Both the position numbers and the translations under genes were made by a program. This document shows positions 13,478 through 44,259 of a DNA stretch of 64,000 nt, piece by piece. The notes beneath the pieces are model-generated. The model was not told the origin of the DNA. It was given only the letters and a program-made list of their open reading frames with translations, and ran no database searches. Positions within the stretch are counted from its first letter, which is position 1. Every line of letters starts with the position of its first letter. This DNA is from Syntrophaceae bacterium UBA2280 (GTDB lineage: Bacteria; Desulfobacterota; Syntrophia; Syntrophales; Smithellaceae): NCBI GenBank assembly GCA_002347685.1, contig DDWS01000046.1, forward strand, positions 151,772-215,771, in the 5' to 3' direction.

Positions 13478-13481
13478 TTCG

Positions 13482-14984: not shown

Positions 14985-15085
14985 AAACCCTGTCCTGAAC
15001 GGATGCTTAATTGACAAATTTCCGGAATTATGCGCATGGAAATTTAAAGTTTAACACATGACTTCAGGGGAGGTATATTTTCAGT

Positions 15086-16330: not shown

Positions 16331-16393
16331 TAAAGAAGCCGTGGATGGTGGATGGTGGATAGGGAATGGGAAATAGCTCATAGCTCATAGTCA

Positions 16394-16432
16394 GCCCGGC
16401 GGTTTTCAACGGTCCGGGTTTTTTCAATTATC
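16394..16432 (+). terminator. Rho-independent terminator candidate
   Basis: An imperfect CCCGG...CCGGG hairpin followed by TTTTTT, downstream of the aminotransferase stop. Confidence 0.5.
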
Positions 16433-16684
16433 AACCTTCCTTCGTTCACCGATGTAACATGGTTTGCAAGAGCGAGGTTTGTGGAATTTTTCTCAGCTTC
16501 AGTTTGCTCCTGGCATATTTCCATGCTTTGCTAAGACTTTCAACACTTTGCATAAGCTTTAAGATTTTTTATAGAAATGCCGATGTCATGTGATAGGGGC
16601 TATATACAACCGTTGATTCGGCAGTCATGTTGTCTGCCGAATATCTGAACTTTATGCCAGCAAGAAAGGAATGGGAAATAAAAA

Positions 16685-30029: not shown

Positions 30030-30733
30030 CCGAACAGCGAGTTTTTTTCGCGCATCGACCGTTCAATCATATCGTAAAATTCAGCCATTTTCTTTGGATC
30101 GGCCATCCACTGAGATCGCGACTTAATCGGCCTGTCCACTTCGAGATATCTGACCACGGAAGCGGGATTCCCGGCGGCAATCGCGTTGGCGGGAATGTCC
30201 TTGACCACGATGGAACCCGCGCCAATGACCGCGTTTTCCCCGATATGAACCCCCTTGCAAACCATCGCGCTGTCTCCAATCCACACATTTTTGCCGATAT
30301 GGACTTCTTGTGTGTTCCCGATGGATGCGCTTCGGTCATAAAGATCGTGCCAGTCAGCATCGGTAATGCAGACATTCTGGGCCAGCATGCAGTCATCGCC
30401 GATGATGACACCCGTGGCCGCCATGATTCTTGTCCCGGGGCAGATCAGGCAATGCCTGCCGATTTCAACCCTGCCGAACTGTTCATTCGCCGTCCAGGAC
30501 GTTAGACGGATTCGCTTTTCCGGGGTAGCAATCAATGTCGTGTGATCCCCAATGGAGACCAACCCGCCGTAAATTTCCACTCCCCATGGCTTCATAAAGA
30601 CCAGGTTGCGGCCGAAATATTCACATTGCGGGGCAAGGAAATGCTGGGCGTACCACTTTTCAAATTTGTAGCTTAATTTTTTAAGATAATATGGCCGATG
30701 ATCATGTCTCAATGTGATAAACCCTGAAACCAC
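29990..30733 (-). CDS. Left-handed beta-helix (hexapeptide repeat) acyl/acetyltransferase
   Basis: 247 aa. Repeated [LIV]G-x4 hexapeptides (IGDHTTLIA, IGRHCLICPG, IGDDCMLAQNV, IGKNVWIGDSAMV, IGENAVIGAGSIV). Confidence 0.8.
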   Translation of the reverse strand: MVSGFITLRHDHRPYYLKKLSYKFEKWYAQHFLAPQCEYFGRNLVFMKPWGVEIYGGLVSIGDHTTLIATPEKRIRLTSWTANEQFGRVEIGRHCLICPGTRIMAATGVIIGDDCMLAQNVCITDADWHDLYDRSASIGNTQEVHIGKNVWIGDSAMVCKGVHIGENAVIGAGSIVVKDIPANAIAAGNPASVVRYLEVDRPIKSRSQWMADPKKMAEFYDMIERSMREKNSLFGWIRSILFPRKGD

Positions 30734-30810
30734 TTCTTGCGTTGATTTGCAAAGACGCTGTAACCCATGTCCCTGATGTTTTATTCGCCGTCGTCATCTG
30801 TATTGCCGCG

Positions 30811-31860
30811 TCACTCACCTATATACAACGACGCTTGCTCCCGCCAATACTGATGGTTAAACAGGCCTGCGGCAGGCGTTATCTTGTTGATGGCGTCCCA
30901 TGCCATGAGGACCGCCGCGGCCGTCCAGCTGGTTTTCTCTTCCGGCCAGATAACGCTGTCCGGAAATGTCACACCCATCCAGTAGGACCCGTCCGGGTAA
31001 CGCTTATCGGACAGCCAGCTGAAGATGGTTCTCGCCCGGGTATCATCTCCAATCGCCGCAAGCGTCATGATGAGTTCGGATGATTCCGCCATCGTCACCC
31101 AGGGGCGATCGCTTACGCAGCGCACGCCCCAGTCAGGCACGACAAACTTCTCCCAAAGGTGACTGATTCGTTTTACGGCATCATCACCACTGAGGGCCCC
31201 GCACAAAACAGGGTAATACCAGTCCATCGAAAAACGGGATTTGATCATATTGAAAAGATCAGGACGGGTGCGAATCGCTGTTCCCAAACGTTCCTGGGCG
31301 GCCTGCCATGCGGACCGCTTCTTGCCCAGAATCCTGGCCACGGCAACCGCGCATTTGATGCTCATGTATATGGAACTGCACCCGGTCAGCAAAGACATCC
31401 GGTCTATGGCTCCTTCACGGTTTCTTGCCCAGTAGATTTCGCCGTTGGGCGTCTGCATGTTGATTGCGTACTGAATTCCCCGGGACAACACAGGCCACAT
31501 GGTTTTTAGAAAATCAAGGTCACCCGTGATCAGATAGTGATGGTATACGCCTACCGCCAGATAAGCGGCAAAGTTCGTTTCCTTGTTGTGATTGATAATC
31601 TCCCCGTCTTTGGTTTCCGACCACCAGCTGCCGTCGGGCAGCTGCGAAGAGGCCATCCATTGATAGGCGCTCTCGGCCTGAGGATAATAACCGGCGATAC
31701 TCAACCCCATGGCGCTTTCCACATGATCCCACGGATCGGTCTTCCCGCCGATCGACCAGGGAATCTCCCCGCTTTCCTTTTGCATCGATGTGATAAAATC
31801 AGCGATTTTTTCCACCTCAATGGGTTTGATCTGTTCACTCAATGATATATTCAATTCCAT
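30811..31860 (-). CDS. Alpha/alpha-toroid protein (prenyltransferase / terpene-cyclase-repeat-like, or six-hairpin glycosidase-like)
   Basis: 349 aa. Repeated aromatic and Asp-Gly-rich motifs (QKESGEIPWS, QLPDGSWW, QTPNGEIYW, RYPDGSYW) typical of prenyltransferase/squalene-oxidase repeats. Confidence 0.55.
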   Translation of the reverse strand: MELNISLSEQIKPIEVEKIADFITSMQKESGEIPWSIGGKTDPWDHVESAMGLSIAGYYPQAESAYQWMASSQLPDGSWWSETKDGEIINHNKETNFAAYLAVGVYHHYLITGDLDFLKTMWPVLSRGIQYAINMQTPNGEIYWARNREGAIDRMSLLTGCSSIYMSIKCAVAVARILGKKRSAWQAAQERLGTAIRTRPDLFNMIKSRFSMDWYYPVLCGALSGDDAVKRISHLWEKFVVPDWGVRCVSDRPWVTMAESSELIMTLAAIGDDTRARTIFSWLSDKRYPDGSYWMGVTFPDSVIWPEEKTSWTAAAVLMAWDAINKITPAAGLFNHQYWREQASLYIGE

Positions 31861-31864
31861 GGTC

Positions 31865-32566
31865 TTATCCTTTTTTCAGATAATAAACGATACTCTTACC
31901 CATCAGCGGGTTTAAGAGCTCTTCCAGCAGCCGCACCAAACGCGGTTTTTTCATAATATCCCATTCGAGAAACTTCTTATAAAGCCGAATCAGTATATTT
32001 CTTTCATTTTTCAGACCCACCAGGCACTTGAGCCACCAGTAGGGCGCATGCAGGGCATGCTTGTAGTTGATCTTCCAGCAGGTGGTGCCCTGTTTGGAGA
32101 GCATCTTTTGCAGCTTTTTCTTTTTGTAAATGCGGATATGGCCGCCTTCCTCATGGTAGTAGGCCGATGATATCAGCCAGCAGATTCTTTCTGAAAAATA
32201 GCGCGGCACACTGACGACCAGGTCGCCCTTCGGTTTTAATACGCGAACCAGTTCGGCAAGGGCCTTTTCGTGTTCGGGGATGTGTTCTAATACCTCCGAA
32301 CAGATCACACAGTCAAATACCGCATCGTCAAACGGCAGGACATTGATATCGGCACAGGCAACATGAAAGTCATGAGACAATGCGTCCGGCATCGTTTTCA
32401 GGCCTTGAATCGCCTCTTTGACATCGGCTTCATTCCGGTCGATGCCGAATATTTTTAAATCCGGCAGCTTCGCCAGTGCGCGCAGATGCCTGCCGCTGCC
32501 GCAGCCGGCATCAAGCACCATGGAACCGGGCTTTAACTTCAGTTCATGAAAGTCGATGGTGACCAT
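31865..32566 (-). CDS. Class I SAM-dependent methyltransferase
   Basis: 233 aa. Motif I VLDAGCGSGRH and a post-I acidic residue (FGIDRN). Overlaps the GT4 3' end by 23 nt. Confidence 0.85.
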   Translation of the reverse strand: MVTIDFHELKLKPGSMVLDAGCGSGRHLRALAKLPDLKIFGIDRNEADVKEAIQGLKTMPDALSHDFHVACADINVLPFDDAVFDCVICSEVLEHIPEHEKALAELVRVLKPKGDLVVSVPRYFSERICWLISSAYYHEEGGHIRIYKKKKLQKMLSKQGTTCWKINYKHALHAPYWWLKCLVGLKNERNILIRLYKKFLEWDIMKKPRLVRLLEELLNPLMGKSIVYYLKKG

Positions 32567-33806
32567 CTATTGCCTCACGATAAACTTCAACCACTTCCGC
32601 AGCGGCTTTGTTCCAGCTGAAAACCGATTGAACACGGGCAATGCCCGCCTGGGCGTATTTCTTTCGTTCTTCGGGAGAATTCAGCAGGTGCATAATCGCA
32701 TGAGCCAGCGCCCCGGCGTTTCCCGGAGGCACAATGATTCCCGCGTCGCCGACGACTTCCGGCAGTGCGCCGCCAGAGGTCGAAATCAGCGGCACTCCGC
32801 AGGCCATCGCCTCCGCCGCGGGGATACCGAACCCTTCATAAAGCGACGGAACAACGGCCACTGTTGACTTTGCGTAGTACTCGGCAAATTCCTCATTGGC
32901 AATTCGCCCGGTAAATTGCACGACGTCACTCACGCCCAATTTTGCGACAAGATTTTCAATGATGCCGTTTTTCTTCGGCTCTCCAATGACGGTCAGTTTG
33001 ACTGACTGCTTCTTGCGAATTTGCGCCACCGCCTCCAGAAGGAAATTAAGCCCCTTCAACGGCGTATCCGCGCTGTTGGTGACAATAATGGTATTTTCAG
33101 GTCTCGGACCGTTTTGTACCGGATAAAAATATTCATGATTGATCCCGTTGTGGACCACCCGGAATTTATTTTCATCCAGCGAAAATTCTTTTGCGATATC
33201 TTTCTTGGTGAATTCAGATACCGTAATGATGTGGGAAAACTTTCTGGCCACCTTCAGTTGCATCCGGATGAATGAATACCAGCGTAAAACACGATACTTC
33301 TGATAAAGGTTTTTTGCCACCTTGAAATCCTCGTGCTTATCCACCGTGATCGGGTGATGGATGGTTACAACCGTCGGCATCACTTTTTGGGCGATTCTTC
33401 CGATCCCGTAGGACAGGCACTGGTTATCATGAACGATATCATAATCATTGCGATGTTTTTTCAGATACGAATAGACCCGCTCGCCAAAGGTGAAGGGCTC
33501 CGGGAAACTTCCCGTGCAAACATTTAAATATTCATACAGATTGAGCGGACGTACCAGATCTCTGATTTTTTCGGGAATAAAAAGATGTTCAGCATTGTAC
33601 AGATCGAGACTGGGCAGCCGGATGAGGCGGACATTGTCGTCCAGGTGTGGGTAAGGCGGCCCGGAGATAACATCGACATGATGTCCGAGATCCGCCAGCG
33701 CCTTGCTTAAATGCTTGATATAAACACCCTGCCCGCCGCAGGTAGGATTACCACGATAGGTCAGCAGGCAGATTTTCAACGGTCTTGAATTGGAACCCTT
33801 TTTCAC
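32544..33806 (-). CDS. Glycosyltransferase family 4 (GT-B, group 1)
   Basis: 420 aa. N-terminal GGQGVYIKHLSKALADLGHHV, and a C-terminal EGFGIPAAEAMACGVPLISTSGGALPEVV (E-x7-E type) motif. The GTG start overlaps the PHP stop (GTGA). Confidence 0.85.
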   Translation of the reverse strand: MKKGSNSRPLKICLLTYRGNPTCGGQGVYIKHLSKALADLGHHVDVISGPPYPHLDDNVRLIRLPSLDLYNAEHLFIPEKIRDLVRPLNLYEYLNVCTGSFPEPFTFGERVYSYLKKHRNDYDIVHDNQCLSYGIGRIAQKVMPTVVTIHHPITVDKHEDFKVAKNLYQKYRVLRWYSFIRMQLKVARKFSHIITVSEFTKKDIAKEFSLDENKFRVVHNGINHEYFYPVQNGPRPENTIIVTNSADTPLKGLNFLLEAVAQIRKKQSVKLTVIGEPKKNGIIENLVAKLGVSDVVQFTGRIANEEFAEYYAKSTVAVVPSLYEGFGIPAAEAMACGVPLISTSGGALPEVVGDAGIIVPPGNAGALAHAIMHLLNSPEERKKYAQAGIARVQSVFSWNKAAAEVVEVYREAIDGHHRLS

Positions 33807-34504
33807 GCACAGGCCCTCTGGATAAGCTTATTTGAATTCTCAAACATGACGGAAATTTCTTCGTCGGACAAACCCGCGCCGCGGGCGATATTCATCGCCA
33901 TTTTGGCGCCGACATAATCGCCGGGAGTGTGTGCGTCGTTGTTGAGAACCAGTTTTGCGTTATATTTTCTGGCCGCCTGGGCGACATGGCCGTTTGTGTA
34001 ACTGTGCCCACGGCGCGTCGTAATCTCCAGACAGATGCCCTTTTCAGCTGCAAGCTTTACTTCAGAATCCTTGATTAACCCGGGATGGGCTAAAATATCG
34101 ACGCCCGCCTCAATGGCCGCCAGATTCGTGCCGGCCGGTACGGGTTCTGTTAGCGTTTCGCCATGGACAATGACAATTTTCGCTCCGAGTTTACGGGCTT
34201 CGGCGGCAAGGGATGCAATATCGGAAGGATCGACATGCGTCAGTTCCACACCGGGAATCACCTGAATGTTCCCTTTCTGGGTGATCCTCGTGCAGGCCTT
34301 GACAATCCTTGGAATCATGAAATCCAAATTGGAGTAATCCCCGTGATCCGTGACGGCAATCGTTTTGTAACCGGCGGCAAACGCGCGCTGCGCGGATTCC
34401 GAAGGAACCAGCACCCCGTCACTGAAAATGGAATGTGTATGCAGATCAATCACTTGGAAAGCCCAACCCGGATATTTAACAATCTTGTGAAAACCTTTGG
34501 TCAT
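33803..34504 (-). CDS. PHP-domain metal-dependent phosphoesterase
   Basis: 233 aa. DLHTHSIFSDG, AVTDHGD, VELTH, IVHGE, ILAHPG and NNDAHTPGD are the His/Asp ligand motifs of the PHP family. Confidence 0.8.
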   Translation of the reverse strand: MTKGFHKIVKYPGWAFQVIDLHTHSIFSDGVLVPSESAQRAFAAGYKTIAVTDHGDYSNLDFMIPRIVKACTRITQKGNIQVIPGVELTHVDPSDIASLAAEARKLGAKIVIVHGETLTEPVPAGTNLAAIEAGVDILAHPGLIKDSEVKLAAEKGICLEITTRRGHSYTNGHVAQAARKYNAKLVLNNDAHTPGDYVGAKMAMNIARGAGLSDEEISVMFENSNKLIQRACA

Positions 34505-34673: not shown

Positions 34674-34718
34674 TTGACAAATGTAGCATTTAGCTTTACA
34701 TAAAGCTTGGTAATACCA
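34674..34718 (+). promoter_or_regulatory. Promoter candidate (TTGACA-17 nt-TACATA) followed by a FadR/GntR-type operator TGGTAATACCA
   Basis: -35 at 34674-34679 and -10 at 34697-34702. A perfect 11-bp palindrome at 34708-34718 fits the TGGT-N3-ACCA operator consensus of FadR-subfamily GntR regulators. It lies 30 nt upstream of the GntR gene. Confidence 0.55.
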
Positions 34719-34747
34719 CCTGCCATATTGATAGAAATGAGGGAACC

Positions 34748-35479
34748 ATGCTCGAAGATTTGCTCGAACCCATTAAGACAGAGAGCCTCAAAGATGTTTT
34801 TGTGCTTCGTTTCGAAGAACTGATTCTCTCGGGCAAATTGAAGATCGGGCAGAAGCTGCCGTCGGAAAGAGAGCTTGCCCTTCAGCTTGGTGTGAGCCGT
34901 CCTGTCGTGCACGAAGGTCTCGTTTTGCTCACAACGCGCGGCCTTGTCTCACTTAAACCCCGTTTCGGCGCGACGGTTAACGATTATCGGAAAGAAGGGT
35001 CCATTACCCTGCTCTCATCGCTGATACATTATCAAAAAGGAAAACTTGAGCCTGAACTTCTTGAGAGCCTGCTGCAAATGAGACTGCTTCTGGAACCACC
35101 GTTTGCCCGTTTAGCAGCAGAAAATCGAACACAGGAACAAGTCCGGGAATTCCAGAGGATCCTTGAGATGGAAGAATCCGCCGATGCCAGGAATACTCAA
35201 ATGATAACCGATCTGGATTTTGATTTCCATCTTCTGATCGCCGTGGCTTCGGGCAATACGGTATACCCGCTTCTTTTAAATTCCTTCAGGCCTGTTTACA
35301 CCAATCTCTCCGGCCAGTTTTTCAAAGACCCGCAGGTGATCGCCGCCGTTCATCAATATCATCGGAATATGATCAAAGCCATTGAAGCCGGGCACGGGGG
35401 AAAAGCAACGTCCGTCATGAAGGAGATCCTTTGCCACGGAGAAAAACATCTCCGGCGAATGATTGACCGGCAAGCATAA
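34748..35479 (+). CDS. GntR-family transcriptional regulator, FadR subfamily (FCD C-terminal domain)
   Basis: 243 aa. Winged-HTH motif KLPSERELALQLGVSRPVVHEGL and an all-helical C-terminal domain. Confidence 0.85.
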   Translation: MLEDLLEPIKTESLKDVFVLRFEELILSGKLKIGQKLPSERELALQLGVSRPVVHEGLVLLTTRGLVSLKPRFGATVNDYRKEGSITLLSSLIHYQKGKLEPELLESLLQMRLLLEPPFARLAAENRTQEQVREFQRILEMEESADARNTQMITDLDFDFHLLIAVASGNTVYPLLLNSFRPVYTNLSGQFFKDPQVIAAVHQYHRNMIKAIEAGHGGKATSVMKEILCHGEKHLRRMIDRQA

Positions 35480-35504
35480 CCGCGTCTTAACAAGGGAGGT
35501 TCAA

Positions 35505-38015
35505 ATGAATACCCGTTCAGCACCCGAATATGACATCAAACAGCCCCGGGGGTTATCCGATCGTATCTCGTGGCTTCGGAATTACTATTTCAGGGGCAAC
35601 GATCGGCCATGGAACAACGAATACACATCCTGGACGACAGGAACCCCCTGGGACATCATCTATAATGAACTGACTTTTTATATCGTGCCCGAAACCTATA
35701 CGCTGCTCAACACACTGGGGGCTTCCTATCTTCAGGCCGCCCGCCCTGTCGTCCTTCATCCGGATTTCTGGCAGTGGCCGCTTGTGGAACGGCGTGCGTG
35801 GTTCGTCCGGGAGGCAATCGTGAATTATGTGCCTCAGGAAATTCTGCCGGGCGATCTGCTGGCTGGCGCAAGGTTTAATATTCAGACATCCATGTGCCTG
35901 ACTCAGAAGGAAAGCAGCAAATGGGTAATGCAGGTGAAAGGCAAAAACGGAGCCCGGGCAAAAATGAAATGGTTTCATGACCATGGTTACGGCAATGCCG
36001 GTGCCACAAGCGGTCATCTGATCCCCGGCCATGAGCGCCTGCTCAAAATCGGCTGGAAGGGTGTGCACGCGGAACTCATGTCTTTCTACAACGCCCTCAG
36101 CAAAACCAAACGCTCCGGATCAAAAGGCTCTCAATTGAGAGCCATGATCACCGCTTCGACCATGGCACGCGATCTGGCTTCAAAATATAGAGGATTATGC
36201 GAGAACCTCGCATCAAACGAACCGGATGCTGTTCGCGCAGGCGAGCTTCGAAGCATGGCTGAAAACCTGAACAAAGTGCCGTGGGAACCGGCAAAAACGT
36301 TCTGGGAGGCCGTGCAGGCGCTGTGGATCAACCACATGCTTGTGATGACGGATGAAAATTATCCCGGCGCGGGCGTTTCATTCGGCCGAGTCGACCAGTA
36401 TCTGTATCCTTATTATGAAAGGTCCATCCGCGACGGCATGAATCGGGAGTTCGCCAAAGAAATTCTTAAATGCTTCTGGATTCACGCCAACACGGCTTAT
36501 GACGCGATGATCCGAAACGGCAATCAGGGAATTACCGCCGGATTCGGACAGCTCATCACGCTTTCCGGCCTCGGGGCGGAAGGCAGGGACATGACCAATG
36601 ATCTCACCTATGTCATTCTTGAAGTGATAGACGAAATGTCGCCCATTTTGGAACCTAAACCCAATATACGACTGCACCATAACACCCCCGAAGAGCTGTA
36701 TGACAGGATCGTCGATATGATCGAATCCAGTCAGGGAGCGCCCTTCCTGTTGAATTTTGACGAACGTTCCATGGCCGGCATGATGCTTGAGGCAAGAAAA
36801 GCCGGCCTGACCCATCTGATTCATAAGGATAATGTTCATGAATATGCGCCTGTCGGATGTCTGGAAAATACGATGGTCGGCAATGACCGATCCGGCACGG
36901 TGGACAATAATCTCAACCTGCTCAAAGCCGTGGAGCTTGCACTGACCGGTGGAAAAGATCTGCTGCCTTTTTGCGACCCCATGACGGGGAAAACCCATTC
37001 CGTCAGGCAGGACGGTCCCCGCACCCGGGATGCAGCGGCTTTTAAAACCTGGGAGGCATTCTGGAAAGCGTATACTCTACAAACACGATACATTATTCAA
37101 AAATGCGTTGATGTGTATGAAGCATCCGAATCCATACGCGCCCGCTTCTTTCCCACACCTTACCTTTCCTGCCTGGTCGAGGGCTGCGCCCAAACGGGTA
37201 AGGACGTCACCCAGGGCGGCGCTCAGATCAGTTTCACCACTCTTGAAGCGGTTACCTATGCCACAACCGTGGATTCACTGCTGGCTATCAAATACCTTGT
37301 CTTTGACAAAAAAGCCTGCACCATGTCTGAATTGGTTTGTGCTCTCACGGCGAACTGGCAGGGATTTGAGGTTCTTCAGGCCATGGCCAAAAATCGCGCC
37401 CCCAAATACGGCCGCGACGATGATGAAGCGGATGCTCTTGCCCGCCGGGTGATGCAACTGTGGTGCGATGAAACCTGGAGACACAGCACCCGGGCAACAG
37501 GACGCAGATACCGCCCGGGCATGCTGAGTTGGAACTACTGGGCCGGCGACGGGTACATCCTGCCTGCAAGCGCCGATGGAAGACAGAAGGGCCAGTTTCT
37601 ATCCAATGCTATCTGTCCATCAAACGGGGCGGACACCAAGGGCCCCACTGCAAACGCAAACTCGGTGGGCAAGGTGCTTGGCGGGAAAGCGAAAGATACA
37701 TCCGGAGACTGGCCAGACTACGTAAATGATCTCCCGAATGGCGCAAGCCACACGATCACGTTCAATCCTTCTATTCTGAAAGATCCGGTGCATAAAGATA
37801 AATTCAAAGCGTTTCTAAAGGGCTATACACATAACGGTGGCACAGCTTTACAGATCAACATCCTTGATCCCGGGATGCTCAAAGACGCGCAAGCGCATCC
37901 GCAGGACTACCGCCATCTTCTGGTGCGCATCACCGGTTATAATGCCTACTTTACAACCGTCGGACGGGAACTTCAGAATGAAGTGATTGAACGCGTCAGC
38001 CATCATAAATTTTAA
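35505..38015 (+). CDS. Glycyl radical enzyme (PFL2 / glycerol-dehydratase-like clade), substrate unknown
   Basis: 836 aa from ATG 35505, with GGGAGG upstream. Thiyl loop VGCLEN (Cys codon 36858-36860, Glu 36864-36866). C-terminal glycyl radical motif VRITGYNAYFTTVGRELQNEVIERV (Gly codon 37935-37937). Confidence 0.85.
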   Translation: MNTRSAPEYDIKQPRGLSDRISWLRNYYFRGNDRPWNNEYTSWTTGTPWDIIYNELTFYIVPETYTLLNTLGASYLQAARPVVLHPDFWQWPLVERRAWFVREAIVNYVPQEILPGDLLAGARFNIQTSMCLTQKESSKWVMQVKGKNGARAKMKWFHDHGYGNAGATSGHLIPGHERLLKIGWKGVHAELMSFYNALSKTKRSGSKGSQLRAMITASTMARDLASKYRGLCENLASNEPDAVRAGELRSMAENLNKVPWEPAKTFWEAVQALWINHMLVMTDENYPGAGVSFGRVDQYLYPYYERSIRDGMNREFAKEILKCFWIHANTAYDAMIRNGNQGITAGFGQLITLSGLGAEGRDMTNDLTYVILEVIDEMSPILEPKPNIRLHHNTPEELYDRIVDMIESSQGAPFLLNFDERSMAGMMLEARKAGLTHLIHKDNVHEYAPVGCLENTMVGNDRSGTVDNNLNLLKAVELALTGGKDLLPFCDPMTGKTHSVRQDGPRTRDAAAFKTWEAFWKAYTLQTRYIIQKCVDVYEASESIRARFFPTPYLSCLVEGCAQTGKDVTQGGAQISFTTLEAVTYATTVDSLLAIKYLVFDKKACTMSELVCALTANWQGFEVLQAMAKNRAPKYGRDDDEADALARRVMQLWCDETWRHSTRATGRRYRPGMLSWNYWAGDGYILPASADGRQKGQFLSNAICPSNGADTKGPTANANSVGKVLGGKAKDTSGDWPDYVNDLPNGASHTITFNPSILKDPVHKDKFKAFLKGYTHNGGTALQINILDPGMLKDAQAHPQDYRHLLVRITGYNAYFTTVGRELQNEVIERVSHHKF

Positions 38016-38027
38016 GGCCGCTTAGCG

Positions 38028-39047
38028 ATGATGCAACCTGAAACTAAAAAAGGCGTTATTCTGGAAATTCACCGCATGTCCACCGAAGACGGTCCCGGCA
38101 TCAGAACGACTGTATTTTTTAAAGGATGTTCACTGGCCTGCCTTTGGTGTCATAATCCGGAGAGCATCAGCCCCAAACCACAGATCCAGTGGATGCAGAC
38201 AAGCTGCATCGGATGTGGAATCTGTGCTGAAACCTGTCCCGAAAAAGCCCTGAAGAAAACCACAAGAGGGATCACGATCAATCGGCTGTTGTGCAACGGC
38301 TGCGGTTTATGTACGGAGGAATGCCCCACAACCGCCATGGAGCTTCTGGGAAAGAAATGGTCGGTGCACGACCTTGCGGACGAACTGGCAAAGGACCGTG
38401 TATATTTTGAACAGTCCGGCGGCGGCGTTACCCTGTCCGGTGGCGAGGCGGCCCTGCAGAGCGATTTTAGCCTTGCGCTTCTAAAAGATCTCCGCGGCAG
38501 AGGCATTCAAACCGCGCTGGATACCTGCGGTCAGGTACCGCAGGTGGTTCTGGCAAGCCTGTTGCCGTATGTGGATATTCTTCTGTATGACCTCAAAGAA
38601 ATTGATTCTAAAAAACATAAGTCTTTTACCGGTTCAGGCAATAAAAAGATTCTGGCCAACGCCCGGTTCGTGGCCGATTACAGAAAATCGCACATCTTTC
38701 CCAAAACCATCTGGATTCGCACCCCGGTGATTCCGGACGCAACAGACACGCCTGAAAACATTCGGGGGCTTGGTGAATTTATCATGGACAACATGCAAGG
38801 CGCCATTGACCGCTGGGAGCTGTGCGCTTTTAACAACCTTTGTCGGGACAAGTACATCAGGCTGGGGCTGAGCTGGCCGTATGCGCATACAGCTCTTCTT
38901 GAGAAAAGGCGAATGGAAGAACTCACACAGATCGCCAAAAGCATTGTGACGCCCTCTGTGGTTTACTGGAGCGGGTCAACCAGGCTGCCTGCAGCCCCCC
39001 ATCCTAAACCGGCGGAAAAGCAAAAAGTACCCGTTTCCCGGTGCTGA
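38028..39047 (+). CDS. Glycyl-radical enzyme activating protein (radical SAM with ferredoxin-type insert)
   Basis: GPGIRTTVFFKGCSLACLWCHNPE (CxxxCxxC) plus two auxiliary cluster motifs (CIGCGICAETCP, CNGCGLCTEECP). Confidence 0.9.
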   Translation: MMQPETKKGVILEIHRMSTEDGPGIRTTVFFKGCSLACLWCHNPESISPKPQIQWMQTSCIGCGICAETCPEKALKKTTRGITINRLLCNGCGLCTEECPTTAMELLGKKWSVHDLADELAKDRVYFEQSGGGVTLSGGEAALQSDFSLALLKDLRGRGIQTALDTCGQVPQVVLASLLPYVDILLYDLKEIDSKKHKSFTGSGNKKILANARFVADYRKSHIFPKTIWIRTPVIPDATDTPENIRGLGEFIMDNMQGAIDRWELCAFNNLCRDKYIRLGLSWPYAHTALLEKRRMEELTQIAKSIVTPSVVYWSGSTRLPAAPHPKPAEKQKVPVSRC

Positions 39048-39070
39048 TGATAACGGAAAGGAGCCGTGCC

Positions 39071-39916
39071 ATGACCCAAATAAATCACTTCGCCGATGCC
39101 GATATGAAGGCTTTTGCGCCTTCCGAGAAAGTCGGCATCCTTGCAACAGTGACACCTGAAGGCCTGCCCCACCTGTCTCTTTTGACATCGATGATGGCGG
39201 CAGGTCCAAAACAGCTGATCATTGGTGAATTCTGCAAAGGCGTCAGCAAGGAATACATGCAGCGCACCCGGAAAACCGGCTTTGCCATTCTGACTCTGGA
39301 TAAAATGCTCTGGCGCGGCAAAGCCATCTGGACGCACTTGCAAAAAGAAGGCGCGGAATACGAGATATACAACCAGCAACCCATGTTCCGGTACAACACC
39401 TATTTCGGCATCAATACGGTCCATTACCTCGATCTGCTTGAAACGACGAAGGGCAATCCGCTGCCTCTGGGATCTGTTGTGCGTTCAGCGCTCCTGACGA
39501 AAATGGCAAAGGGTGGAGCGTTGAAATCCGATCCTGAAAGGGTTCTTTCGTACTTCGGTGAAAAATTATTCAACGGACTCGATTCCCTTAAATTTTTATC
39601 CTTCATTGAGGAGGACGGTTTCCCGGTCATCATCCCCGTCATTCAATGTCAGGCGGCGGGCAGTGGACGTTTGGCCTTTCATCCCGGAGCTTTTCGACAG
39701 GAGCTGAAAATACTGAAACCGGGCATGACGGTATCTGTATTTTGTCTGACGATGCAGATGGAGGATGTTCTGACGCGTGGCATTTTTAACGGCTATAACC
39801 GATATCGGGGAGTCAGTCTGGGTACTTTGGATATTGACTGGGTCTATAACTCCATGCCCCCCAATCACGGACAGATTTATCCGCCCCTGCCCCTGGAGGC
39901 GGTCGTCAATTTCTAA
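39071..39916 (+). CDS. Pyridoxamine 5'-phosphate oxidase-like (FMN-binding split-barrel) protein, apparently two tandem domains
   Basis: 281 aa from ATG 39071, with AAGGAG upstream. VGILATVTPEGLPHLSLL and a second FLSFIEEDGFPVIIPV segment resemble PNPOx-family N-terminal strands. The assignment is by pattern only. Confidence 0.5.
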   Translation: MTQINHFADADMKAFAPSEKVGILATVTPEGLPHLSLLTSMMAAGPKQLIIGEFCKGVSKEYMQRTRKTGFAILTLDKMLWRGKAIWTHLQKEGAEYEIYNQQPMFRYNTYFGINTVHYLDLLETTKGNPLPLGSVVRSALLTKMAKGGALKSDPERVLSYFGEKLFNGLDSLKFLSFIEEDGFPVIIPVIQCQAAGSGRLAFHPGAFRQELKILKPGMTVSVFCLTMQMEDVLTRGIFNGYNRYRGVSLGTLDIDWVYNSMPPNHGQIYPPLPLEAVVNF

Positions 39917-40098
39917 TTTTCTGGATTCGTGATTGGAATATTCTGCATCTGCGGCCAAACACAGGGATCCATACTTGACGGACTGGATCTGATCCCGTTT
40001 CCTTCTACACCGCCGTAGCCGTCAGCCGGCAAAGCAACAAAGAAGTTGAAGCCCAACAGCAGATTTCCTCTGCTCATGGCTTCAACACTCTTTCCCTA

Positions 40099-40443
40099 TT
40101 ACTTTTTTTTAAGCAGCATAAATGTGGCCGACACACGGCAGATTTGTTTGCCTTTGTCATCGGTTACCAGGCAATCGCCGATCATCAGGCTCTGGCCTTT
40201 CTTAAACACACCTGCCTCGGCGATCAGTTCACCACTGTTGACGCCTGAAAGAAAATCGCTTTTGAGTTCGATGGTGGTCAGACCTTCGTCAGGGCTAAGC
40301 TGTGTCATCATCGCGTGCGCGATGGTCTCATCAGCCAGCGCAACGATCAGACCGCCCTGCATGGCTTTGGCACCCTGCAGGTACTCTTGCCGCACCGGCA
40401 TTTTAAACGAGGCACGCCCCGAGGCAAGATCCAATACCGTCAC
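40099..40443 (-). CDS. PaaI-family hotdog-fold thioesterase (the N-terminus appears disrupted or frameshifted; see findings)
   Basis: MPVRQEYLQGAKAMQGGLIVALADETIAHAMM matches the PaaI/4HBT signature region. Conserved-looking coding sequence continues upstream in frame with no ATG/GTG. A well-placed ATG with AAGGAGGG sits at 40528 in another frame. Confidence 0.7.
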   Translation of the reverse strand: MTVLDLASGRASFKMPVRQEYLQGAKAMQGGLIVALADETIAHAMMTQLSPDEGLTTIELKSDFLSGVNSGELIAEAGVFKKGQSLMIGDCLVTDDKGKQICRVSATFMLLKKK

Positions 40444-40712
40444 GTTAAAATAATCCAGATAGGGATTGAGCCCCTTCTTTCCCTCGCAAAGACCTTTCAG
40501 ATAAAGAGGATAATTAAAAATAGCTCATCCCTCCTTTGAACGGATATGAGCTATTTGTATATGCGATTTTCAGATTTTTGCGAGCTTTTTATTCGCGGAG
40601 TTCGTTCTTATGAAGCGTATCTTTTCGTTTGCGGAAAACATCTCACTTACGTGCAGCCTCCGGCAGGCAGCAATTTTTCTTTCGCCTTGCTCCTGATTCG
40701 GGTTCCTCTTTT

Positions 40713-41804
40713 TTACGCACCGCTTTTTATCACATGTACGGCAGTGGCTTTGAATGATGCCTTCAGAAGACTGCCTTCACGGATATCCATCTCTTCGAAA
40801 GAAGGCAGTGTAATATAGGCGCCAATCCTGAAGCCGCAATCCAAGATGAGTTTATAGAAGTAAGCCTGTCGAACAATTTTCTCGACTCTGGCATCGAAGA
40901 TATTGCGCGCGCTGGTTTTTCCGGTAACCGCCCGGGTCACAGTAATATGTTCAGGCCGCAGGCAGCAATGAACCTTTGTGCCTTGCGGGTAGTTTCCGGA
41001 TGCTTCAATGATATGGCCATTCACCCCGATTTCCATCAACCCGGCAATGCTTTTCATTACCAAGCCTTCGAGGATGGTATCCGCTCCCACGAAGCCGGCG
41101 ACAAATTCATCGGCAGGCTGATTAAAAACCTCTGCTGCCGTCCCGGCTTGAACGATTCTCCCTTCTTTCATCACGGCCACATCGTTCGCCAGACGCAGGG
41201 TTTCTTCACGGTCGTGCTGCGCCAGAATGGCTGTAACCTTCGTTTTTTGCAATGTCTTTTGCAAATCATCAATAATCGTTTCGCGCGTAGGCGGATCGAG
41301 TGAATTGAAAGATTCGTCCAGGAGAATCACGCCTGGCGAAATCGCGAATGCACGCGCCAGCGATACCCTCTTCGCCTCGCCACCTGAGAGCGTTTTCGCC
41401 GAACGTTTCGCCAGATGAGCGATGCCGAAATTGGTCATGGCCTCCTCCACACGCTCGGCTGTCTGTCTGGCGTCCATGTGCCTGAATTTCAGTCCCAGCG
41501 CCACGTTTTTATAAACCGTGTCATTGATGAGGAGCGGTTCCTGAAAGACGACAGCGACGTTTCGCCGCAGCATGTCCAACGATGATCGGTCGCCAATGGG
41601 TTTGGCGTGAAAGAACAACCCGCCGCTCGTCGCCGGAAGCAGACCTGCAAGCGTCAAAAGCAGGGTGGATTTTCCGGCACCGTTGGGTCCGATGAGCGCG
41701 AGCGTTCGCCCAGGCACGATGTCCAGCCGGTCTATGTCGAGCACTGTCACCTTGCCGCGCTTCACAATCAGACTTTGAACGGCTATAATAGGAAAATTGG
41801 TCAT
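40713..41804 (-). CDS. tupC: Tungstate/molybdate ABC transporter ATP-binding protein with C-terminal TOBE-like domain
   Basis: Walker A GPNGAGKST, signature LSGGEAKRV and Walker B ILLDES, plus an OB-fold-like extension of about 120 aa. Its start overlaps the permease stop by 4 nt. Confidence 0.75.
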   Translation of the reverse strand: MTNFPIIAVQSLIVKRGKVTVLDIDRLDIVPGRTLALIGPNGAGKSTLLLTLAGLLPATSGGLFFHAKPIGDRSSLDMLRRNVAVVFQEPLLINDTVYKNVALGLKFRHMDARQTAERVEEAMTNFGIAHLAKRSAKTLSGGEAKRVSLARAFAISPGVILLDESFNSLDPPTRETIIDDLQKTLQKTKVTAILAQHDREETLRLANDVAVMKEGRIVQAGTAAEVFNQPADEFVAGFVGADTILEGLVMKSIAGLMEIGVNGHIIEASGNYPQGTKVHCCLRPEHITVTRAVTGKTSARNIFDARVEKIVRQAYFYKLILDCGFRIGAYITLPSFEEMDIREGSLLKASFKATAVHVIKSGA

Positions 41805-42499
41805 TGTGGACGTTGCCTCTGCTGAATCTGCGTGAGCATAAAGTTAATGATAAACGCCAGAAGCAGAAGGATGATGGACAGGGCAATGGCTATGTCAAAA
41901 TTGCCTTTGCCGGTTTCCATGACCGTGGCGGTCGTTAACACGCGTGAATAGCCTTTAATGTTGCCTCCCACCATGATAGACGCGCCGACTTCGGAAATGA
42001 CACCGCCGAATCCGGCCATGACCGCCGCAAGCAGCGGCAATCGGGATTCCTTCACCAGAACCCAGACCATCTGCAGGCGGCTGGCCCCGAGCGTCAGCAT
42101 CTGCAAACGCAGATTGGGTGGCAGATTCTGAATGGCGGCAAGTGAAATCCCCATGACGATCGGTGTGGCAATAATCGCCTGAGCGATGATCATGGCATAG
42201 GGGGTATAGAGAATCTCCAGAAAACCGAACGGCCCGCTGCGCCAGATCATCATGGTTACAAACAGTCCCACGACCACCGGCGGCAGACCCATGCCCGTAT
42301 TGATGATGCTGATGACTACCCTCTTGCCGAAAAAATCATTGAGTGCAACAGCGGTGCCGATAGAAACGCCGATGAAAAGACTGATGAACGTGGCCGTTCC
42401 TGATATTTTCAGCGACAGCCACGTAATCCCCAGCACTTCCGTGTCGAATGTAATCAGCAGCTCAATCGCTTTGATGATGCCTTGTAGAAATATATCCAT
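41801..42499 (-). CDS. tupB: Tungstate/molybdate ABC transporter permease
   Basis: 232 aa, 5-6 TM, lying between the binding-protein and ATPase genes. Confidence 0.75.
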   Translation of the reverse strand: MDIFLQGIIKAIELLITFDTEVLGITWLSLKISGTATFISLFIGVSIGTAVALNDFFGKRVVISIINTGMGLPPVVVGLFVTMMIWRSGPFGFLEILYTPYAMIIAQAIIATPIVMGISLAAIQNLPPNLRLQMLTLGASRLQMVWVLVKESRLPLLAAVMAGFGGVISEVGASIMVGGNIKGYSRVLTTATVMETGKGNFDIAIALSIILLLLAFIINFMLTQIQQRQRPQ

Positions 42500-42507
42500 A
42501 GTCCTTC

Positions 42508-43383
42508 TTATTTACCCAAATCTTCCACTTTCTTGCCGGCATCCGGAAAAAACAAAGGCGCGCCGAATTTATCCACACCGAACGTTTTGATCACATCCTG
42601 GGCTTCCTTTGAGACCATAAAATCGGCAAAGGCCCTGGCGCCTTCGCCATTCACTTTCGGCCATTTATCGGCCGGCACTTCCATCACATGGTAAATATTG
42701 AGGAGTGACGCGTCGCCTTCCACCAGAATCTCAAGTGCGATGTTTTTCTTCAGCGCCAGATACGTGCCGCGGTCGGCCAGCGTGTAGCCTTTCTTTTCAG
42801 AGGCGACGTTGAGCGTCTGCCCCATGCCCAGGCCCGTTTCCTGATACCATCTCTGTCCCGCAGGATCAATGCCGGTCTGCTTCCAAAGCGCTTTTTCCTT
42901 TGCGTGCGTACCGGAATTGTCGCCCCGGGAAATGAAAAGTGCGTTGCCCGCCGCGATGGTTTTTAGAGCGTCGGCCGAAGCTTTAATGCCTTTGATCTTG
43001 ACCGGATCTTCCGCCGGACCGACGATAATGAAGTCGTTATGCATGATCAGCCTGCGGTTGACGGCAAAACCTTCTTCCACCATTTTAATTTCCGCGTCCG
43101 GTGAGTGCACCAGCATCACATCGGATTCGCCCTTTCTTCCCATCGCCATCGCCTGGCCGGAACCGACGGCAATCGTTTTAACGAAGTAACCCGTCTTTTT
43201 TTCAAAATTTGGAATCAACACATCAAGCAGACCGCTGTCCTGCGTGCTGGTGGTCGTCGTCAGAATAATGTTTTTCTGCGCGGGCGCTTTCTTTGCCGCC
43301 TGGGCCATTGACGCTCCCGATACCAAAAGCAGTGCGGCTGCGACAACCGCAAATACGGTTTTCATATTTCGCATTCTTTTCAT
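42508..43383 (-). CDS. tupA: Periplasmic tungstate-binding protein
   Basis: Signal peptide, then ILTTTTSTQDSGLLDVLIPNFEKKTGY. From memory, the TTTS-x2-DSGL motif is the TupA-type oxyanion-binding signature. Confidence 0.7.
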   Translation of the reverse strand: MKRMRNMKTVFAVVAAALLLVSGASMAQAAKKAPAQKNIILTTTTSTQDSGLLDVLIPNFEKKTGYFVKTIAVGSGQAMAMGRKGESDVMLVHSPDAEIKMVEEGFAVNRRLIMHNDFIIVGPAEDPVKIKGIKASADALKTIAAGNALFISRGDNSGTHAKEKALWKQTGIDPAGQRWYQETGLGMGQTLNVASEKKGYTLADRGTYLALKKNIALEILVEGDASLLNIYHVMEVPADKWPKVNGEGARAFADFMVSKEAQDVIKTFGVDKFGAPLFFPDAGKKVEDLGK

Positions 43384-43395
43384 TTGCTTTCTCCT

Positions 43396-44259
43396 TTATG
43401 ATTTTTTGTTCTTTTTCTGCCATTCCACGGAATTGGGGAAAAACAGAGGGGCTCCGTATTTATCCTTTCCGAAATCCCGGATGATAATCTGACCATTTTT
43501 GGGTGAGGTCAACCATTTAACAAATGTCATCGTATCCTTATGATTGACTTTCGGAAATTTGGCGGGATTGACGGGTATAAGCGAAATGTAATTGAGAAGC
43601 GCTTCGTCCCCTTCAACCAAAATACCAATCTTGATGTCATCTTTAAGGGATAGATACGTGGCCCGGTCGATGACCGTGTAAGCCGACTGGCTGTCGGTGT
43701 ATTTGAGCGTGACCGAATTGCCTTCCGTGCCTTTTTCATAGACCACATACCAGGCGCCTTCCGGTTTCAAACCGGCCGTTTCCCAAAGCACCATCTCGGC
43801 CACATGCGTACCGGACTTATCGCCCCGGCTGATAAATTTCACCTGCTTGTCCATCATTTTTTTCAGCGCGACCGTGACGGATTTCTCGCTCTTGATCCCT
43901 GCCGGATCTTCCGCAGGCCCAACGATTACGAAATCGTTATACATCAGTGGAAATCTTTCCGTGCCTAATCCGTCGGCAATGAACTTTTCCTCCAGTGATT
44001 TCGCGTGCGCCATCACCAGATCAATCTGACCATTCTCAGCCATTTTCAGCGCCGCGCCCGTTCCCGCGCCGACATGCCGCACGCGAATGCCTGTTTCTTT
44101 TTCAAAAGCGTCTTCTAGCGCCGCCACCACACCCGAATCAATCGGGCCAATCGTACTGGATAAAAAAACAAACCGATCCCCATCAGAGGCCAGCGCAGCA
44201 CTGGACCAAATCAAAAAAAACAGCACCAGACATTTTCCAACAAATACTTTCATTGTCAT
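43396..44259 (-). CDS. Second TupA-like periplasmic oxyanion-binding protein (divergent paralogue)
   Basis: Signal peptide, and collinear similarity to the neighbouring TupA (FLSSTIGPIDSGVVAALEDAFEKETGI; NDFVIVGPAEDPAGIK vs NDFIIVGPAEDPVKIK; ISRGDKSGTH vs ISRGDNSGTH). The TTTS motif is replaced by SSTIG. Confidence 0.7.
   Translation of the reverse strand: MTMKVFVGKCLVLFFLIWSSAALASDGDRFVFLSSTIGPIDSGVVAALEDAFEKETGIRVRHVGAGTGAALKMAENGQIDLVMAHAKSLEEKFIADGLGTERFPLMYNDFVIVGPAEDPAGIKSEKSVTVALKKMMDKQVKFISRGDKSGTHVAEMVLWETAGLKPEGAWYVVYEKGTEGNSVTLKYTDSQSAYTVIDRATYLSLKDDIKIGILVEGDEALLNYISLIPVNPAKFPKVNHKDTMTFVKWLTSPKNGQIIIRDFGKDKYGAPLFFPNSVEWQKKNKKS

Follow-up and report, generated by a model that had tools for sequence, protein, structure and literature searches.

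The locus described here lies within a stretch of 64,000 nucleotides (the window) from Syntrophaceae bacterium UBA2280 (GenBank assembly GCA_002347685.1, contig DDWS01000046.1, positions 151,772 to 215,771 of the forward strand). Four co-oriented open reading frames (ORFs) in the ORF list of the window lie within positions 34674-39916 of the plus strand and encode a GntR-family repressor (gntR), a glycyl radical enzyme (GRE), the radical-SAM enzyme that activates the GRE (activase), and a protein of 281 amino acids termed P291. The ORFs and Pfam domains agree with a preliminary description of a four-gene locus with a FadR-type GntR regulator, a GRE and its activase. Judged from the sequence, the four genes are likely to form one autoregulated operon with the following features (positions are those of the window).

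34674-34702, plus strand: presumed sigma-70-like promoter with a -35 box TTGACA (34674-34679), a 17-nt spacer and a -10 box TACATA (34697-34702)
34708-34718, no strand assigned: putative operator, the perfect palindrome TGGTAATACCA (TGGTnnnACCA), between the -10 box and the gntR start codon
34748-35479, plus strand: GntR-family repressor of the FadR/FCD subfamily, 243 amino acids (Pfam GntR, FCD and FadR_C)
35505-38015, plus strand: GRE, 836 amino acids (Pfam PFL-like and Gly_radical)
36015-36017, plus strand: His171 of a G-H motif, proposed general acid (alignment to 1r8w, 9rco and 2f3o)
36852-36869, plus strand: Cys loop VGCLEN with Cys452 (36858-36860) and Glu454 (36864-36866), encoded by TGT-CTG-GAA (36858-36866)
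37614-37616, plus strand: Cys704 in SNAICP, a second conserved Cys specific to the family (alignment)
37926-37952, plus strand: radical motif RITGYNAYF with the Gly811 codon GGT at 37935-37937 (Pfam Gly_radical)
38028-39047, plus strand: activase, 339 amino acids (TIGR02494; Radical_SAM and Fer4)
38127-38150, plus strand: CX3CX2C motif of the activase (read from the sequence)
38205-38240 and 38292-38327, plus strand: two ferredoxin-type cluster motifs of the activase (read from the sequence)
39071-39916, plus strand: P291, tandem split-beta-barrel protein, 281 amino acids (structure model, Foldseek and family profile)
39245-39250, plus strand: S59-K60 of P291
39389-39397, plus strand: invariant R107-Y108-N109 of P291
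39851-39913, plus strand: C-terminal tail of P291, SMPPNHGQIYPPLPLEAVVNF (family alignments and structure model)

The sequence at 34674-34702 was read directly, was missed by a strict consensus scan, and presumably serves as the promoter of the operon. Its -35 box is where the preliminary description lets the locus begin. Two of the ORFs extend upstream of the starts given above. The longest ORF of the GRE gene (35463-38015) opens at an in-frame TTG at 35463, which is an unlikely start codon; the real start is almost certainly the ATG at 35505 because it is preceded by a ribosome-binding site (GGGAGG) and the resulting 836 amino acids match the length of the homologues (836-838 amino acids). 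Residues of the GRE are numbered according to this 836-amino-acid form. Similarly, the longest ORF of P291 spans 39041-39916 and the ATG at 39071 is almost certainly its real start, since it is preceded by GGAAAGGAG and gives the 281 amino acids found in most homologues.

A protein search identified at least 120 GRE homologues with 72-100% identity and 826-866 amino acids among the matches listed, which are named at most “pyruvate formate lyase family protein” or carry mis-transferred labels. Smithella proteins share 85% identity with the GRE of the window. When one genome per species was scanned, at least 187 stretches that encode the enzyme were revealed, and 80 of these 187 loci were fetched to count their gene contexts. 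They belong to Smithella, Smithellaceae, Syntrophaceae, Desulfobacterales, Leptospirales and Spirochaetota and include metagenome-assembled genomes labelled Poribacteria, Bacteroidetes and Phox-21. The activase gene follows the GRE gene in 79 out of 80 loci and a P291 homologue follows the activase in 68 out of 80, the other 12 being contigs that end before that position. Overall, the GRE-activase-P291 order is the same in all 68 informative species-level loci, and the repressor is located upstream of the GRE in 43 of the 80. Most loci are self-contained and comprise nothing but the repressor, GRE, activase and P291; apart from the triad, which may or may not come with gntR, no conserved neighbour gene was found in the related loci.

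The triad is also maintained among distant relatives. A P291 clade with 26-29% identity retains the GRE-activase-P291 order next to a GRE that is 57-58% identical to that of the window, and a clade with 25% identity follows a GRE of 798 amino acids that is 45% identical over its full length and retains the signature motifs, in which all substitutions are conservative. In locus L100 (55-9312, plus strand) the order is GRE, P291-like gene, five HAAT-type ABC transporter genes, activase, and dihydroxyacetone (DHA) kinase, so that the activase is displaced and the P291 gene still adjoins the GRE. No P291 relative without this GRE was seen where the contig was long enough. The association between P291 and the GRE is therefore old and specific to this GRE family, which argues against P291 being a generic helper of all activases. 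The locus very likely represents a new and widespread GRE family with an obligate third component, and this oxygen-sensitive enzyme probably catalyses a still undescribed anaerobic reaction.

No description of this GRE family, of a split-barrel or PNPOx partner of a GRE, or of ether cleavage by a GRE was found in the literature. A 2026 review of the GRE superfamily covers characterised eliminases, isomerases, decarboxylases and multi-subunit GREs, none of them with a flavoprotein-like or split-barrel partner. The three-component GRE module with a tandem split-barrel partner is undescribed, and its parts (GRE, activase, GntR and split barrel) are of known kinds.

The GRE contains both the barrel (PF02901, PFL-like, E = 2e-122) and the C-terminal glycine radical domain (PF01228, Gly_radical, E = 1e-20) with scores above the gathering thresholds and thus belongs to the PFL-like (pyruvate formate lyase-like) branch of the GRE superfamily. 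The radical fingerprint RVxG[FWY]x6-8[IL]x4Qx2[IV]x2R is matched by R-I-T-G811-Y-NAYFTT-V-GREL-Q-NE-V-IE-R, with a conservative deviation to Val at the [IL] position, where other family members have Ile. A catalytic Cys on the Cys loop and an adjoining cognate radical-SAM activase are both present, and the activase reaches 302.5 bits with TIGR02494 (cut-off 174). The radical motif with its Gly codon and the Cys-Leu-Glu triplet lie exactly where the preliminary description had placed them.

The GRE was compared with the NCBIfam equivalog models, for which a whole-protein score at or above the curated cut-off defines membership, and it reached none of the cut-offs. The highest-scoring equivalog was HpfG (365 bits, cut-off 1000), followed by HypD (355 bits, cut-off 1100), HpsG (347 bits, cut-off 1000), CutC (300 bits, cut-off 1050), the PflD-type model PRK09983 (250 bits, cut-off 1109), indoleacetate decarboxylase (IAD; 222 bits, cut-off 1100), HPAD (167 bits, cut-off 1150), and PFL (92 bits, cut-off 994). 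The PFL2-3 subfamily model TIGR01774 gave 398 bits (cut-off 678). The relatives in the PDB scored about 250-280 bits. HypD, glycerol dehydratase (GD), CutC, and the PFL2 of A. fulgidus shared the top rank with about 276-282 bits, and the X-succinate synthases, HPAD and PFL were far lower (117-189 bits for HPAD, 157-169 bits for the benzylsuccinate synthase BSS and MasD). A Foldseek search with an AlphaFold2 (AF2) model of the GRE ranked 1,2-propanediol dehydratases (PDs), GD, CutC and HypD at the top, all of them only 19-26% identical. The N-terminal part of about 170 residues aligns neither with known GREs nor with family profiles. By these scores the GRE is outside every characterised GRE family, and its nearest neighbours in sequence and structure are the eliminases PD, GD, CutC, HypD and HpfG, all about equally distant.

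These results bear on the earlier proposal of an orphan, eliminase/dehydratase-like GRE that is neither a PFL nor an X-succinate synthase. The enzyme was checked for a position inside a characterised clade and lies in none of them, and both the scores and the Cys loop support the proposal. It is not a PFL because the single Cys of its G-C-L-E loop lacks the Cys-Cys pair. An X-succinate synthase was rejected, as the operon contains no ORFs for small Fe-S beta or gamma subunits and the BSS and MasD structures score so low. In JGI and NCBI, close homologues go by names such as “formate C-acetyltransferase”, “pyruvate formate lyase family protein”, or “trans-4-hydroxy-L-proline dehydratase”, which would make the GRE an ordinary PFL or HypD. 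This annotation is extremely improbable and effectively refuted by scores (92 bits versus 994 for PFL, 355 versus 1100 for HypD) and motifs: the Cys-Cys pair is absent, the counterpart of HypD Asp278, which we take to be a substrate-binding residue, is Gly, and identity to the solved HypD and PFL is about 23% or lower.

The catalytic residues of the eliminases can be identified by alignment. Cys452-x-Glu454 corresponds to the GCVE(P/T) loops of GD, HypD and CutC, and the C-x-E motif of eliminases and dehydratases is thereby present as C452-L-E454. Gly170-His171 aligns with Gly163-His164 of GD (1r8w), with the Gly-His of the PD 9rco, and with the His of PFL2 (2f3o); CutC has an Asp at the position of His171. 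Both His171 and Cys-x-Glu are invariant within the family down to 45% identity. The 2026 review defines C-x-E as the motif of all GRE eliminases and isomerases and presents His164 of GD as the proposed general acid that protonates the leaving hydroxyl. The middle residue of the motif is Thr in IseG and HpsG and Leu or Met in the family of the window. The C-L-E loop had initially been regarded as a distinction from the GCVEP form; the reading of the loop is correct, but the Leu is not diagnostic by itself.

The residues at a second motif of the dehydratases are different. His281-Ser282 of GD (the GHS motif common to GD and 9rco) is replaced by G(A/P)G in the family, and the counterpart of GD Tyr339 is Phe or Tyr. 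His281, Ser282 and Tyr339 are the residues that contact glycerol in GD. By alignment the elimination machinery is thus kept and the residues at the GHS motif of GD and PD are not. Because these residues are not conserved, the enzyme is on that basis not a simple isofunctional glycerol dehydratase, and membership in the glycerol/1,2-propanediol dehydratases was rejected on the change from GHS to G(A/P)G together with the TIGR01774 score. A GRE proposed in the literature for 1,2-ethanediol in Pelobacter is a different, GD-like gene.

GD (DhaB1/DhaB2 of Clostridium butyricum, 1r8w) and the PDs (5i2g and 9rco) share the fold with the GRE of the window as its best structure and sequence neighbours, the aligned C-x-E loop and Gly-His, and an adjoining activase with two extra ferredoxin-type clusters. 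They differ from it by an identity of about 23% with cut-offs missed, the GHS motif, the divergent 170 N-terminal residues, and the absence of Cys704 and of an obligate third protein. Furthermore, the GRE is not associated with a microcompartment: no protein with a microcompartment shell (BMC) domain was found in the flanks of the window or in the annotated gene tables of the relatives, and BMC-domain families are also absent from the 25 commonest Pfam families of 106 neighbours.

The signature motifs of the family are kept down to 57% identity, with conservative substitutions to 45%. They are GxxGxTxGH(L/I)IP, DENY(P/A)G(P/A)GxSFGR, GIT(A/S)G(F/Y)GQL, VGC(L/M)ENTMxGNDRS, FR(P/G)GMLSWNYW, SNAIC704P, LPNGASHTITF, and R(I/V)TGYNAYF. 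The position of Cys704 is occupied by Ser in GD, HypD, CutC and PFL2 (in DG(I/V)SP or PGVSP) and by Ala in IseG, and the radical glycine is embedded in TGYN (37932-37943) in the family and in AGY(S/C) in other GREs. Both family-specific substitutions fall in GRE motifs that are highly conserved otherwise.

The AF2 model of P291 (62 homologues, pLDDT 87.4, pTM 0.85) consists of two tandem beta-barrels. In Foldseek searches each half matched single-domain split-barrel proteins (E = 1e-6 to 1e-3, target-normalised TM-score about 0.7), including HupZ, the putative PNPOx 2htd, the Desulfovibrio vulgaris FMN-binding protein, F420-dependent reductases, and PhdC, which acts as a maturase for prenylated FMN. 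A profile of the P291 family matched HupZ (E = 1.7e-9) and the FMN-binding protein Swol_0183 (3in6, E = 2e-4), both via the N-terminal domain. The predicted fold is therefore the split beta-barrel of the PNPOx-like/FMN-binding superfamily. Pfam PF01243 gave 19.5 bits, below the gathering score of 28.1, and some homologues carry a precomputed PF01243 match. The N-terminal domain contains a G-x-S-K motif with a Lys that aligns with a Lys of Swol_0183 and that we assume, on the basis of this alignment, to bind the FMN phosphate. Hence, of the double PNPOx-like flavoprotein that was first suggested, the double fold is confirmed by AF2 and Foldseek, and “flavoprotein” is a prediction from the fold.

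Across the whole P291 family Gly94, Arg107-Tyr108-Asn109, Gly183 and Gly237 are invariant, and the protein carries neither a conserved Cys pair nor Cys cluster motifs. Its last 21 or so residues (SMPPxHGQIYPxxPLxxVxxF) are nearly invariant in most clades, are modelled with a pLDDT of 40-52, and are absent from the most distant clade. A tail that is near-invariant and has a low pLDDT is the pattern typical of a peptide that folds onto a partner, and the tail, predicted to be disordered, is accordingly a probable docking peptide. P291 homologues form about 2,300 database clusters at 90% identity, all labelled “hypothetical”, and a search among 1.84 billion cluster representatives returned 417 representatives with E <= 1e-3, almost all of about 280 amino acids. 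A joint alignment of all distant clades was too diverse as a query and a single clade was used instead. By these searches the P291 family is small and discrete.

Each half of P291 superposes on HupZ of Streptococcus pyogenes, on the D. vulgaris FMN-binding protein, on Swol_0183, and on PNPOx-like or F420 reductases. The small split-barrel proteins are homodimers. They are single-domain proteins of about 120-150 amino acids, whereas P291 fuses two diverged copies, adds the R-Y-N motif and the conserved tail, and is found only beside this GRE family. A precedent for an extra small protein that a GRE needs and that is always co-encoded exists in HPAD (HpdC) and in the benzylsuccinate/alkylsuccinate synthases (beta, gamma and delta subunits). 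The small subunits of these GREs are Fe-S or rubredoxin-like proteins, in contrast to a tandem split barrel of 281 amino acids, and the catalytic subunits of the multi-subunit GREs are much more distant from the GRE of the window. According to the 2026 review, such co-encoded proteins affect radical chemistry or stability, and the delta subunit of MASS is rubredoxin-like.

What P291 does may be considered on this basis. Most likely it would act as an accessory subunit and use its tail to dock on either the GRE or the activase, possibly with FMN, and its task could be redox support, radical maintenance or repair, or product handling. A rather unlikely alternative is that P291 is a dedicated low-potential electron donor to the [4Fe-4S] cluster of the activase, in the manner of a FMN flavodoxin substitute, without a role in the GRE reaction. 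The fold that P291 has in common with the D. vulgaris FMN-binding protein and flavin/F420 reductases, the retained G-x-S-K with its Lys aligned to Swol_0183, and a gene usually placed directly after the activase and apparently translationally coupled to it are consistent with such a donor. However, P291-like proteins are confined to this GRE family and were not found with other GRE activases, the P291 gene of L100 adjoins the GRE while the activase is five genes away, and HupZ, the nearest sequence relative, is not a flavoprotein.

A role of P291 in catalysis as a redox-active or radical-relay subunit, which would make the locus the first three-component catalytic core of a PFL-like GRE, is quite unlikely. 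A more specific version, in which the GRE catalyses a net redox reaction such as a ribonucleotide reductase-like reductive dehydroxylation with P291 as the supplier of reducing equivalents and Cys704 as the partner of Cys452, is very improbable. It would account for an obligate protein of a redox-type fold beside the GRE in every informative locus, for a Cys that is conserved where other aligned GREs have Ser or Ala, and for the unusual TGYN at the radical glycine instead of AGYS or AGYC, but it is purely inferential. The AF2 model does not show where Cys704 lies with respect to the active site, a conserved Cys pair is absent from P291, and no PFL-like GRE is known to need a reductant (2026 review).

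The repressor matches Pfam GntR (6e-15), FCD (2e-22) and FadR_C (2e-20), all above the cut-offs, and its GntR winged helix, FCD/FadR_C domain and TGGTnnnACCA-type operator place it in the FadR/FCD subfamily of GntR regulators. It shares this domain composition and a palindrome of this type that overlaps the promoter with PdhR, LldR, GlcC, NanR and FadR, to which it is about equally similar, and differs from them in that it scores below every NCBIfam equivalog cut-off and is encoded at only half or so of the related loci. The palindrome was spotted by eye and then confirmed by a pattern search; an inverted-repeat tool returned nothing because the palindrome is short. Among the related loci with a called gntR (33 loci in several phyla, from Smithella to Spirochaetota), 30 carry TGGTAATACCA or a variant with one change among its three central bases no further than about 40 nt from the gntR start, and TGGTAATACCA is therefore a likely operator of an autoregulated operon. 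A riboswitch or other RNA element upstream of the GRE was found neither in the window nor in 11 related loci without gntR.

Glycerol kinase, DHA kinase, aldehyde genes and substrate transporters of the kinds described below are missing from the neighbourhood of the operon in the window, and leads to the substrate come from the related loci. Glycerol kinase (glpK, above the equivalog cut-off) is located 1-43 nt upstream of the GRE in L061, L068, L075 and L077, on the downstream side of P291 in L086 and L090 (a fragment in the latter), and four genes downstream in L035. It thus occurs near the triad in at least three different arrangements, and the loci with glpK are without gntR. A DHA kinase gene lies within the operon of L100. 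Genes for aldehyde:ferredoxin oxidoreductase (AOR), an SCP2 protein and an iron-containing alcohol dehydrogenase (Fe-ADH) follow P291 on the same strand in L038, L039, L049, L093 and L094, with a sulfatase between P291 and AOR in L093, L094 and probably L038, and in L003 an AOR gene is found 14 nt upstream of the GRE. CUT2 sugar/polyol-type ABC transporters are present in four lineages (L082/84, L087, L088/89 and L090). By our own rough estimate, chance would put a single-copy gene such as glpK no more than a few genes away from a given locus in roughly 0.2-0.3% of genomes, and a chance explanation is unlikely for the presence of glpK or the DHA kinase gene, in several arrangements, at about 8 out of about 100 loci. 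The classical dha regulon of glycerol fermenters comprises a dehydratase, an alcohol dehydrogenase and a DHA kinase, and the gene set in the relatives, with its neighbouring kinase and Fe-ADH genes, resembles it. The statements that no transporter or aldehyde gene is nearby and that the substrate cannot be deduced from context hence apply to the window, but not to the relatives, where the comparative context provides a C3/glycerol lead.

In the Desulfobacterales clade of L093 and L094 (about 10890-16900, plus strand), the genes after P291 encode a protein of 186 amino acids without a Pfam or NCBIfam match, the sulfatase-family protein (471 amino acids), AOR, the SCP2 protein, the Fe-ADH, and a protein of 142 amino acids without a match. 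Locus L078 contains a second GRE gene (12437-14806, plus strand; 789 amino acids) located 35 nt after P291 and without an activase of its own. This second GRE is a full-length PFL2-type enzyme with a GCVEP loop (TIGR01774 611 bits, below the cut-off) that is 32% identical to the first, and the two GREs may share one activase. The genes kbl and tdh adjoin the triad in L077, a single locus, and were not used.

Other neighbours suggest two alternative functions. A lactate transporter of the MFS superfamily (L-lactate, SfMCT equivalog) follows P291 in L075 and L077, a relative with 33% identity is found in L019, and an LctP permease is found in L081. These four loci, together with the FCD-type regulator and the self-contained operon of most loci, would fit a decarboxylase of a carboxylic acid similar to HPAD, IAD or PhdB, in which the repressor senses the acid, the monocarboxylate transporters import it, CO2 and a volatile product need no downstream genes, and P291 is a new kind of small subunit, for which HPAD, a GRE that depends on an obligate small subunit, is a precedent (2026 review). 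A decarboxylase is nonetheless improbable: the IAD and HPAD models score 222 and 167 bits against 347-398 for the eliminase models, HPAD reaches only 117-189 bits in the PDB search, the conserved Gly-His, which aligns with the general acid of the dehydratases, is in keeping with OH as the leaving group, and the glycerol kinase, DHA kinase, sugar ABC, AOR and alcohol dehydrogenase neighbours are left unexplained.

Furthermore, lipid-type neighbours occur in the relatives, namely acyl-CoA ligases, acyl-CoA dehydrogenase with enoyl-CoA hydratase, PlsC-type acyltransferases, a flavoprotein similar to geranylgeranyl reductase (GGR), and a GDSL lipase. Such genes and the sulfatase-AOR-SCP2-Fe-ADH group would fit a C-O (ether or glycoside) lyase or an isomerase whose substrate is a glycerol compound derived from lipids or bearing an O-substituent, such as an alkylglycerol ether, a glycosylglycerol, or a long-chain or sulfated diol, with an alkoxide leaving in the same ketyl-radical elimination and the released glycerol or alcohol being phosphorylated or oxidised. 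The small or hydrophobic counterparts of the GD/PD G-H-S residues (YPG(P/A)G and Phe/Tyr347), the FadR_C match of the repressor, the sense that a kinase for released glycerol would make, and the cleavage of ring C-O bonds known from GRE isomerases that use this chemistry (2026 review) point in the same direction. The C-O lyase is still considered unlikely, as each of these neighbours is limited to a few lineages, AOR and beta-oxidation genes are so abundant in these syntrophs that some adjacency would arise by chance, the reading points to no defined substrate, and a simple elimination on alkylglycerols would give hydroxyacetone rather than glycerol.

Taken together, we propose with moderate confidence that the locus encodes a dehydratase/eliminase-type GRE for a glycerol-related C3 hydroxy compound and a new obligate accessory protein. 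The parts of this proposal differ in strength. Chemistry of the eliminase or dehydratase type is likely, judged from the conserved catalytic residues and the nearest neighbours, and an origin of the substrate in glycerol or C3 metabolism is plausible, if tentative. A number of observations weigh against the proposal. The C3-kinase lead comes from a minority of loci and has no counterpart in the window itself. FCD/FadR regulators usually sense carboxylates or acyl-CoA and not polyols, and HPAD-type decarboxylases also carry the C-x-E motif. The replacement of GHS and the Phe or Tyr at the position of Tyr339 separate the enzyme from GD, some contexts (sulfatase-SCP2, acyl-CoA dehydrogenase, the GGR-like protein and the GDSL lipase) point to lipid or surfactant catabolism, and the AF2 model of the GRE (pLDDT 71.9) is poorest at the active-site loops (below 50 at the Cys loop, the Gly loop and residues 675-720), which makes it unusable for an analysis of the pocket. 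A flavin in P291 would follow from the modelled fold, and HupZ, its nearest sequence relative, binds haem and not flavin.

If the locus encodes such a dehydratase, the following sequence of events can be envisaged. The FadR/FCD repressor would occupy TGGTAATACCA, which overlaps the promoter, and be released by a small acidic ligand. The activase, with S-adenosylmethionine and its [4Fe-4S] clusters, would generate the radical on Gly811, as is expected from its family membership. The radical would then pass to Cys452, and the thiyl radical would take a hydrogen from the hydroxyl-bearing carbon of the substrate while Glu454 deprotonates that hydroxyl and His171 protonates the leaving group (OH or OR) on the neighbouring carbon. 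From the conserved catalytic residues, the substrate would undergo 1,2-elimination or dehydration, with an aldehyde or ketone as the product. The most likely substrates would be glycerol-related C3 vicinal diols, either glycerol itself or a phosphorylated or O-substituted derivative, in a pocket unlike that of the known GD and PD. A dehydratase combined with an alcohol dehydrogenase or aldehyde oxidiser and with a kinase for the oxidative branch would follow a dha-like logic, the monocarboxylate carriers could move 3-hydroxypropionate or lactate, and the FCD regulator could sense such an acid.

The GREs of sulfonate metabolism, HpfG and HpsG (DHPS dehydratase and sulfolyase) and IseG/IslA, offer a further comparison. 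HpfG is the top equivalog model, and these enzymes act on a C3 vicinal diol with an anionic group, in which we see a likeness to the proposed substrate. They also have a residue other than Val in C-x-E (C-T-E in their case) and an Arg about 10 residues after the Cys. They differ in that the GRE of the window is far below their 1000-bit cut-offs, no sulfite-handling genes lie near it, and they occur without P291. Moreover, the Arg/Gln/Arg triad that binds the sulfonate in them, as described in the 2026 review, has no counterpart in the alignments.

The regions on either side of the operon were also inspected. A TTG-started ORF of 135 amino acids (40046-40453, plus strand) downstream of P291 has no Pfam match, was matched in 1 out of 80 related loci, contains a terminator-like hairpin (40137-40152), and is probably not a gene. 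An ABC transporter is encoded just downstream of the operon (40713-44259, minus strand) by an ATPase of 363 amino acids, a permease of 232 amino acids, and two tandem binding proteins of the PBP_like_2/SBP_bac_11 families (phosphate, tungstate or molybdate type). It was rejected as a clue to the substrate on account of the opposite strand and the match of its components in only 1-3 out of 80 related loci, and it is probably unrelated to the GRE. Upstream, a cluster that diverges from the operon (28416-34504, minus strand) encodes a B12-binding radical-SAM enzyme, a protein of 349 amino acids without a Pfam match, a class I methyltransferase, a GT4 glycosyltransferase, and a PHP-domain protein; the radical-SAM enzyme was matched in 6 out of 80 related loci and each of the other genes in 1 out of 80. 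Two fluoride riboswitches (RF01734, gathering score 34) are located further upstream on the plus strand at 5925-5986 (55.9 bits) and 7803-7864 (52.1 bits). The first is followed by an ORF of 556 amino acids (6010-7680) with a weak GTPase-like match and the second by a CPA2-family cation:proton antiporter-like protein of 407 amino acids (7861-9084), which is neither crcB nor eriC, the usual fluoride exporters.

Compared with the preliminary description, the present analysis adds an obligate partner, a predicted operator and a C3/glycerol lead, and P291 as the invariant partner is the most interesting feature of the locus. GREs catalyse key reactions of anaerobic metabolism, and newly characterised GRE families have each revealed a new pathway, from the formation of trimethylamine out of choline to the metabolism of hydroxyproline, sulfonates and anhydro-sugars. 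The family described here is abundant and found above all among the syntrophs of the Smithellaceae and Syntrophaceae and among sulfate reducers that live in peat, groundwater and digesters, hosts that control the flow of carbon to methane. Its locus is a compact four-gene set with a predicted operator and a shortlist of substrates, and its invariant third protein, whose fold has never been associated with GREs, hints either at a new reaction or at a new means by which the radical is supported or controlled. Were a three-component catalytic core to exist, it could enable new GRE chemistry, either reductive dehydroxylation via Cys704 or an anaerobic cleavage of glycerol ether or glycoside bonds in the turnover of lipids and necromass by syntrophs.

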